From Candidatus Magasanikiibacteriota bacterium (GTDB lineage Bacteria; Patescibacteriota; Patescibacteriia; Magasanikbacterales; UBA922): DNA of 64,000 nt. A program made the position numbers and the translations under genes. The stretch is taken from the NCBI GenBank assembly GCA_043809645.1, contig JBDROX010000044.1:767-64766 (forward strand), written 5' to 3'. Below are positions 28,549 through 30,630 of the stretch, in pieces (the stretch's first letter is position 1; each line of letters begins with the position of its first letter). The notes beneath the pieces were generated by a model. It searched no databases, was not told the origin of the DNA, and saw nothing but the letters and a program-made list of their open reading frames with translations.

Positions 28549-29796
28549 CTAGATATCTAAATTTTTGACGCTCTTGGCATGCGTCTGTATAAACTTTTTT
28601 CTTGGCGCCACTTCGCTTCCCATGAGAATGTCGAAAATTTCACTTGCCTTTTCTGCGTCCTCTATGATTACTTGCTTCATAACTCTGTGCTCTGGGTCCA
28701 TAGTCGTAAACCAGAGCTGTTCTGGATTCATTTCACCAAGACCTTTGTATCTTTGAATATTCAACTTCACTTTCTTAGGCTTCGTTTTTGGAGTTTCTTC
28801 TTCATTTTCTTCTTCCTCTGAGACTTCTACATCCTCGTCTTTAATTTTGTGTTTCTTTTTGTACGCGTCGAGAGCTTCTTCATTATACATCCACTCTACA
28901 TCTTTTCCCTTCTTTACGCTATAGAGTGGTGGCTGTGCAATATAGATATGACCATTTGTAATGAGGGTAGGGAAGTAGCGGAAGAAGAGAGTGAGAAGGA
29001 GTGTACGGATATGTGATCCATCAACATCAGCATCTGTCATAATAATGATCTTGTGGTATCTCAGCTTTTCGATATTAAACTCTTCCCCAATATTGGTGCC
29101 CATGGCAATTATGAGGGACTTGAGCTCATTGTTCGTAAGAATTTTATCAAGCCTGGCTCGTTCAACATTTAGCACTTTTCCACGCAGCGGAAGAATTGCC
29201 TGAGTATTCCTGTCGCGGGCTTGCTTTGCAGAGCCGCCAGCAGAGTCTCCCTCTACAATATATATTTCTGATTCCTCTGCTTTTCTGCTCGAGCAATCTG
29301 CGAGTTTTCCGGGTAGTGTAAACCCCTCGAGTGCTCCTTTTCTGAGGACTGACTCGCGTGCAATGCGTGCTGCGTTTCTGGCTCTGGCTGCCAGGAGACA
29401 TTTCCCGAGGATGCCTTCTGCATCTTTTGGGTGCTCCTCGAGGAAGATCATGAGTGTGTCGCCAAAGACGCCTTCAACAGCAGGTTTTACTTCTGGGTTT
29501 CCAAGTTTTCCTTTTGTTTGTCCTTCGAATTGTGGATCCGGGAGCTTCACAGAGATGATGGTGGTGAGCCCTTCTCGGACATCCTCGCCAGACAGGTTAA
29601 CATCTTTTTCTTTTAGAATTCCTTTCTTTCTCGCATAGGTATTGAGGGTTCTCGTTAGGGCACTTCTAAATCCCGCGACATGGCTTCCACCATCTGGGTT
29701 CGTAATATTATTCGCAAATGCATGGAGGGATTCTGCATAGTCTGCAGTATACTGGAGCGCAATCTCTACAATAATATCTCCTTCATTTTTTTCCAC
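28549..29796 (-). CDS. gyrB: DNA gyrase subunit B, C-terminal (transducer/TOPRIM/tail) part; same frame as 29983-30630
   Basis: [39 protein letters not shown] motifs. Confidence 0.85.
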
Positions 29797-29982
29797 ATAA
29801 AAAACATTTTCGTGTTTTGGTTCACGGTTTTTGTTGATATGTTTGATGTAGCTCGCAATACCTCCCTCGAAATAGAACTGGTATGAAGAAACAGGGAAGG
29901 CAAGTGCGGAGGTGTCTTTTTCTTTCTCCTCTATGGTACGTTCATCATGAATGTAGATGCGTATACCTTTGGTAAGGTAAGC

Positions 29983-30630
29983 CTACTGGCGCAGGTGATC
30001 AATGATTGTCTTCCATTCGTAGTCGAGTGTGTCAAAAATTTCTGCATCTGGCTTGAATGAAATTGTAGTTCCAGTAAACTTTGTTTTTCCAACTGCTCTT
30101 ACATTCTTTACGGCTTTTCCACGTTTGTATTCCTGAATCCAAATCTTTCCGTCTCTGTGAACTTCTGCTTTTACATCTACAGAAAGTGCATTTACAACAG
30201 AAACACCCACGCCGTGGAGACCGCCAGATACTTTGTACACAGTGTCACCGAATTTTCCACCGGCATGCAGCTTTGTCATGACCAGCTGGAGCGCACTGAC
30301 TTTCATTTTAGGATGAATACCAACCGGGATGCCACGACCGTTGTCAGTGACTGAAACCCAGTTTCCTGGAAGAAGCTTGATGGTGATATCTGTACAGTAC
30401 CCTGCCATGGCTTCATCGAATGCATTGTCTACCACTTCCCAAATCATGTGGTGGAGTCCGCGTTCGCCAGTCGAACCGATGTACATTCCAGGGCGCTTCC
30501 TTACTGCCTCGAGTCCTTCGAGTACGGTAATGGATTCTGCATCATATTTGGCATCCTTTTTCTTTGCAGGTGTTTTTTCTACCACTCCTTTACTGCTCTT
30601 TATTTCCTTTTTTTCAATCTTTTTTGGCAT
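29983..30630 (-). CDS. gyrB: DNA gyrase subunit B, N-terminal ATPase part, ending at in-frame TAG 29983-29985
   Basis: GHKL ATPase motifs (VVDNAFDEAMAG, DNGRGIPV, GLHGVGVSVVNALS). Confidence 0.85.
   Translation of the reverse strand: MPKKIEKKEIKSSKGVVEKTPAKKKDAKYDAESITVLEGLEAVRKRPGMYIGSTGERGLHHMIWEVVDNAFDEAMAGYCTDITIKLLPGNWVSVTDNGRGIPVGIHPKMKVSALQLVMTKLHAGGKFGDTVYKVSGGLHGVGVSVVNALSVDVKAEVHRDGKIWIQEYKRGKAVKNVRAVGKTKFTGTTISFKPDAEIFDTLDYEWKTIIDHLRQ

Follow-up and report, generated by a model that had tools for sequence, protein, structure and literature searches.

The window, by which we mean the whole 64-kb stretch of DNA that was analysed, carries gyrB on its minus strand at 28549-30630. Translation gives a frame of 693 sense codons with one internal TAG and a terminal TAG. 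The first-pass annotation had described a single frame with exactly one in-frame stop at these positions, and both its coordinates and its frame are correct. The internal stop is codon 216, at 29983-29985, and appears as CTA on the plus strand. A list of open reading frames therefore presents the gene as two pieces, an ORF of 215 amino acids (29983-30630, of which 29986-30630 are coding) and one of 415 amino acids (28549-29796). The first holds most of the GHKL ATP-binding domain, the Pfam HATPase_c domain of the homologues. The second holds the transducer, TOPRIM and C-terminal domains. Between them lie 62 open codons (29797-29982), free of ATG, GTG and TTG, and we confirm the earlier claim that these 186 nucleotides encode a conserved GyrB segment, which includes the FYFEGGI motif. 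The GTG at 29796, with which the 415-residue ORF is listed as beginning, is merely the first possible start. The terminal TAG (28549-28551) falls at the conserved C-terminus, following KNLDI.

With the internal TAG read as glutamine the protein scores 940.8 bits against the NCBIfam gyrB model TIGR01059, at equivalog level given the cut-off of 882.4. The read-through protein stays below the cut-offs of the parE models, with 721.8 bits for parE_Gpos (cut-off 899.95) and 600.1 for parE_Gneg (cut-off 723.35). It matches the solved structure of E. coli GyrB in the PDB with an E value of 3e-210. Residues 21-693 align collinearly to solved GyrB chains and end at the final residue, which places the terminal TAG where both E. 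coli GyrB and the gyrB profiles end. Homologues carry PF02518, PF00204, PF01751 and PF00986. Sequence identity to GyrB of other Magasanikbacteria is 74-84%, the best relative anywhere being at 84%. The predicted read-through product is unmistakably GyrB, and the departure from an uninterrupted ORF is confined to the TAG at codon 216.

The gene lies at a change in coding orientation. At approximately 30631-30780, in the gyrB promoter region, the direction of transcription flips; essentially everything on its left uses the minus strand, and most genes on its right use the plus strand. Cumulative GC skew stays level on the left of this interval and climbs on the right, as it does at a replication origin. 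No dnaA gene is present at the switch, nor is there a cluster of DnaA boxes beside it, the 17 matches found being at chance level (18.5 expected). Downstream of gyrB two genes lacking family matches (26746-28545, minus strand) separate it from secE, one a lipoprotein-like ORF of 181 amino acids, the other an ORF of 319 amino acids in a stretch that is locally richer in GC (0.49). In the nearest relative (L001) gyrB is followed directly by secE-nusG. Between nusG and rplK, at 25459-25815 on the minus strand, is a gene for a four-helix-bundle '23S rRNA intervening sequence' protein (PF05635, with a weak bAvd-like match).

Other parts of the window merit brief description. A compact cluster for de novo pyrimidine synthesis occupies 6068-12394 on the minus strand and displays unusual gene fusions. 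It encodes a PyrD-PyrE-PyrF-like protein of 844 amino acids that combines dihydroorotate dehydrogenase, phosphoribosyltransferase and OMP decarboxylase, a 750-residue protein that joins a PyrC-like amidohydrolase to aspartate carbamoyltransferase, PyrI, and a second aspartate or ornithine carbamoyltransferase. The cluster is of note since Patescibacteria are usually thought to lack nucleotide biosynthesis. A WipA-like metallophosphatase (17252-18472, minus strand; PF21663, a family that includes an effector phosphatase of Legionella) lies in a thymidylate and folate cluster with tmk, folA, thyA, dut, dCMP deaminase and a kinase. The end of the window (59153-64000), possibly mobile or defence-flavoured in nature, contains a RecQ-family helicase with an adjoining GIY-YIG nuclease ORF, a Bro-N domain protein and the N-terminal domain of a type I restriction-modification methylase (HsdM) that runs off the end.

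Two further genes of the window are broken. At 2-556 on the plus strand an IS110-family, RNA-guided transposase is represented by its C-terminal part, which is cut by the start of the window and has an in-frame TAA at 302-304 that aligns with the glutamate immediately before the ESGSS motif of IS621. This fragment, at the edge of the contig, is probably a repeat that has degraded or was mis-assembled. At 5281-5900 on the minus strand, in an island of 30% GC, a gene for an FkbM-family methyltransferase is frameshifted at a run of eight A residues (approximately 5585-5592) so that only a C-terminal ORF of 87 amino acids can be called; it is either a real pseudogene or the product of a homopolymer indel error.

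What did the interrupted gyrB codon encode? The internal TAG had earlier been aligned with leucine of B. subtilis GyrB. That holds for model organisms, E. coli GyrB also having leucine here (RLRELSFL), but it does not give the ancestral codon. In the organism's own clade the residue is glutamine in 119 of the 120 closest GyrB proteins (HLRQQAYLTKG), and at this point the nearest relative (L001/L002) has CGC CAG CAG GCA, the window CGC CAG TAG GCT. On this comparison the lesion is one transition, C>T in the coding strand, that converts CAG (Gln) to TAG. The base concerned is an A at plus-strand position 29985, and a G there would give CAG. Glutamine codons in this gyrB are CAG nine times and CAA five times. 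Amber mutations classically arise by this change from CAG to TAG.

Comparison with 82 related genome loci, 80 of which are resolved at the site, reveals a sense codon in all 80 (CAA, CAG, CAC, CAT, TAT or ACN). Neither these 80 loci nor the 120 proteins have a stop at this position. The site is tolerant, with glutamine, histidine, tyrosine, threonine or lysine in relatives and the leucine of E. coli. An exact DNA pattern around the site gave no match in the JGI metagenomes, and no JGI metagenome contig carries TAG in the conserved gyrB context when searched with a degenerate pattern, a search made without a matching CAR-pattern positive control. As far as these comparisons extend, the stop is unique to the present sequence.

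Apart from this codon the gene is intact. Compared with the nearest relative, pN is 0.15 upstream of the stop. It is 0.17 against a pS of 0.82 in the 62-codon stretch, which is 76% identical to that relative, and 0.10 against 0.85 in the C-terminal part, pS being saturated at approximately 0.8. Low pN with saturated pS on both sides of the TAG argues that gyrB is not decaying, and both halves are, by this measure, under strong purifying selection. A decaying pseudogene was therefore rejected, there being a single lesion and pN values of 0.10-0.17 on either side of it. DNA damage or hypermutation within gyrB was likewise rejected; of 372 near-invariant columns, just three in addition to that of the stop differ in the window, and none of these three reflects a C>T change. 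The lesion is either evolutionarily instantaneous or absent from the organism itself.

The significance of an in-frame TAG depends on how this codon is used elsewhere in the window. TAA is the commonest terminator and ends 38 of the 68 non-overlapping candidate ORFs; TAG ends 20 of them, and 16 of the 57 curated gene models. Genes that finish in TAG include gyrB itself, nusG, secE, rpmE, pyrI and rplA. The stop falls at the conserved end of the profile in SecE (position 55 of 55), PyrI_C (48 of 48) and ribosomal protein L1 (198 of 198); NusG ends in TAG at 181 amino acids, the same length as in a relative, and L31 is another such case. The machinery to read these stops is encoded approximately 6 kb from gyrB. 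Release factor 1 is specified by prfA (36551-37648, minus strand), which scores 471.6 bits against NF001859 (cut-off 400) and 459.9 bits against TIGR00019 (cut-off 423.25) and has both the PET and GGQ motifs. RF1, the factor whose loss would accompany reassignment of TAG, is thus retained. Adjoining prfA is a gene for a release-factor glutamine methyltransferase of the PrmC/HemK family (35669-36541, minus strand), with a TIGR00536 hemK_fam score of 149.6 bits (cut-off 115.5) and the PrmC_N Pfam domain. Judged from these genes, the standard code is used here and UAG is a real terminator read by RF1.

On real coding strands some pairs of ORFs lie in the same frame and are parted by one TAG: rpmE and prfA, secE and nusG, pyrI and pyrC-pyrB, gyrB and the lipoprotein gene, and the two halves of gyrB. 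Of these pairs, just the gyrB halves belong to a single gene. Pairs parted by TAG or TAA were considered as possible split genes, and rpmE with prfA, secE with nusG, pyrI with pyrC-pyrB, and the phosphatase gene with folA all proved to be normal adjacent genes.

The observations are best explained by an otherwise ordinary, functional-looking gyrB with one point lesion in the deposited sequence that would not be programmed. We put the probability that this is a one-off C>T change under the standard code, whether an artefact or a very young nonsense allele, at about 0.88. These are the options of consensus error and recent nonsense allele that the first-pass annotation had included, and they are favoured by the involvement of a single base, its uniqueness among relatives, normal use of TAG and an RF1 encoded nearby. 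The probable cause is an artefact that arose in sequencing, assembly or consensus calling, which would include selection of a minority variant by the assembler. A real nonsense allele of very recent origin among the sampled cells is possible, if rather unlikely.

How readily might an error of this type arise? About 4.3% of the possible single-base substitutions in the genes of the window create a stop. For the approximately 54 kb that are coding, a consensus error of 1e-4 per base would yield 0.23 nonsense codons on average, and one of 1e-5 would yield 0.02. With 0.23 expected at the higher rate, one nonsense substitution is not beyond chance for a draft metagenome-assembled genome (MAG). Although the window has about 100 homopolymer runs of at least seven bases, some 55 of its other genes are intact. 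This argues for a consensus that is generally accurate and renders a random error somewhat less likely a priori. The frameshift in the FkbM methyltransferase gene and the TAA in the IS110 fragment indicate that there is some real decay or error elsewhere in the contig, and neither tells us which. There is no sign of a systematic miscall linked to a motif, since CAGCAG occurs 39 times in the window as against 33 for CAGTAG and is not depleted.

The deposited base stands by itself. The lipoprotein adjacent to gyrB and six other proteins of the window exactly match NCBI entries from a Candidatus Magasanikbacteria MAG, in the range MFH1287018-054 (locus tag ABII02_04770). All the matched proteins are singletons in a collection of 15 billion proteins, even when clustered at 90%. 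Exact look-ups of both gyrB fragments, of the protein repaired with glutamine and of 14 neighbours returned only NCBI singletons from one contig of 64,990 bp, with no independent assembly, and a protein search with the 215-residue fragment found nothing above 80% identity. With a single NCBI MAG and singleton proteins, no independent assembly vouches for the TAG. The consecutive protein accessions leave no number for gyrB, which suggests that PGAP had already treated the gene as a pseudogene. Pseudogenes called from internal stops in bacterial assemblies are often artefacts of assembler, platform and coverage (Cooley & Wright 2024, PMC11017572).

Were the allele genuine, on the other hand, the cell would have to rely on near-cognate read-through at a low level. 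In E. coli such decoding of UAG inserts mainly glutamine, and also tyrosine, lysine and tryptophan (PMC4333366). Insertion of glutamine would restore the wild-type protein, and as tyrosine and lysine occur at this column in relatives the product should be functional, yet it would be scarce while RF1 is present. The tolerance of the site for several residues means that a leaky stop may be less harmful here than at most positions.

The remaining explanations invoke decoding of the stop or division of the gene and, taken together, are improbable. Dedicated amber suppression, by a tRNA with a CUA anticodon (a glutamine suppressor for example) belonging to the cell or a resident phage and perhaps with a regulatory role, would account for a gyrB that is otherwise perfectly conserved. 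The stop sits where relatives have glutamine, the residue inserted by classical TAG reassignments and by suppressors of the supE type, and suppressor tRNAs have precedents both in large phages and in those that infect Patescibacteria. However, the 64-kb window contains no suppressor tRNA. The first-pass annotation had raised this possibility, but the only tRNAs present are Leu(CAG) and Asn(GUU), with no CUA or UUA anticodon. Nor do other genes in the window share the feature, which had been proposed as a check: there is no second in-frame TAG in approximately 18,000 codons. The TAA of the IS110 fragment had been offered in support, but this is a different codon, the commonest terminator of the window, in a truncated mobile element at a contig edge. 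TAG ends about a quarter to a third of genes, and reading past the terminal TAG of gyrB leads in frame into the next gene (28000-28545), from which it follows that an efficient amber suppressor would create a GyrB-lipoprotein fusion. RF1 and PrmC are encoded close by, and the stop is neither conserved in the 80 relatives nor found in this context in JGI metagenome contigs. Suppression or read-through is thus unsupported in the window, and we regard a dedicated suppressor as a long shot. We give equally little weight to the broader form of this idea, that the TAG is real and fixed in a Magasanikbacteria population with UAG read as glutamine through a cellular or phage tRNA(CUA) or through leaky termination by RF1. 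A fixed and decoded TAG would mean that a stop codon governs the translation of an essential gene in a bacterium whose code is otherwise standard. Pyrrolysine can be considered in the same context. No pylT or pylSBCD was seen in the Pfam and NCBIfam annotation of the window and, to our knowledge, pyrrolysine at a conserved glutamine is without precedent.

Still less likely is programmed read-through, in which cis-acting signals would stimulate decoding of the UAG and yield a short ATPase fragment along with a low level of full-length GyrB. The 215-residue product would amount to almost the whole GHKL domain, several residues are tolerated at the site, and glutamine, tyrosine and lysine are all inserted by near-cognate decoding of UAG in E. 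coli (PMC4333366). The RNA itself is unremarkable. Neither the 120 nucleotides downstream of the stop nor 120 nucleotides centred on it are significantly structured relative to shuffled sequences (z = -0.10 and -0.90, respectively). The +4 base is a G, which is not distinctive among the natural TAG terminators of the window, and a stop at this site is found in no relative.

A naturally split gyrB whose two products associate, or an old pseudogene whose role has passed to a gyrB or parE copy elsewhere, is similarly very doubtful. The two listed ORFs, of 215 and 415 amino acids, superficially fit the former. However, the 62 codons after the TAG provide neither a start codon nor a Shine-Dalgarno sequence with a start, and their constraint matches that in the remainder of the gene; a protein begun at the GTG of 29796 would lack conserved sequence, FYFEGGI included. 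GyrB is a single chain in all of the approximately 200 relatives examined, and the absence of additional lesions is contrary to an old pseudogene. Finally, genome-wide reassignment of TAG to glutamine, as in genetic code 15, has in its favour only the coincidence of TAG with a glutamine column and is effectively refuted, hence excluded, by an intact prfA, one in-frame TAG in the whole window and normal termination by TAG at conserved domain ends in gyrB, nusG, secE, rpmE, pyrI and rplA.

We return to the one-off lesion and consider it against known systems. With the artefactual internal-stop pseudogenes described in PMC11017572 it shares one premature stop in an intact, conserved and essential gene, occurrence in one draft assembly and, evidently, the lack of a protein record. 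It differs in that an artefact is here a probable cause. Broken copies of gyrB are not rare in public assemblies. Three Patescibacteria contigs of 60-141 kb (L083, L084 and L085) have the gene in three to five consecutive pieces, the pattern of uncorrected long-read indel errors. In these the pieces are in different frames, whereas the gyrB of the window has one clean substitution.

There is also a resemblance to classical amber alleles of E. coli, in that a CAG>TAG change is one for which near-cognate insertion of glutamine would restore the wild-type residue; amber read-through in E. coli is low while RF1 is present (PMC4333366), and RF1 is encoded in the window too. The lineages that employ genetic code 25, in which UGA specifies glycine (Absconditabacteria and Gracilibacteria), belong to the same phylum, Patescibacteria, and patescibacterial phages can carry a suppressor tRNA that matches this code. 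The usual recoding in phages is of TAG to glutamine. In recoded systems the codon appears in most genes, the cognate release factor is lost and the suppressor tRNA is present. The window differs in having one in-frame TAG in approximately 18,000 codons, normal termination by TAG and TGA, and RF1.

We infer that the TAG reflects an artefact or a transient allele and is not part of a mechanism, and the finding is best filed with the internal-stop pseudogene calls of draft assemblies. It offers two lessons. An in-frame stop in a MAG should be weighed against the stop usage of that genome, its release factors and its close relatives before recoding is invoked. Alignment should be made to the nearest clade, for in this case the ancestral residue is glutamine and the leucine of model organisms is misleading. 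Should the TAG prove real and decoded, this gyrB would be a rare example of an essential bacterial gene that relies on suppression of a stop codon, in a phylum with one known change to the genetic code.
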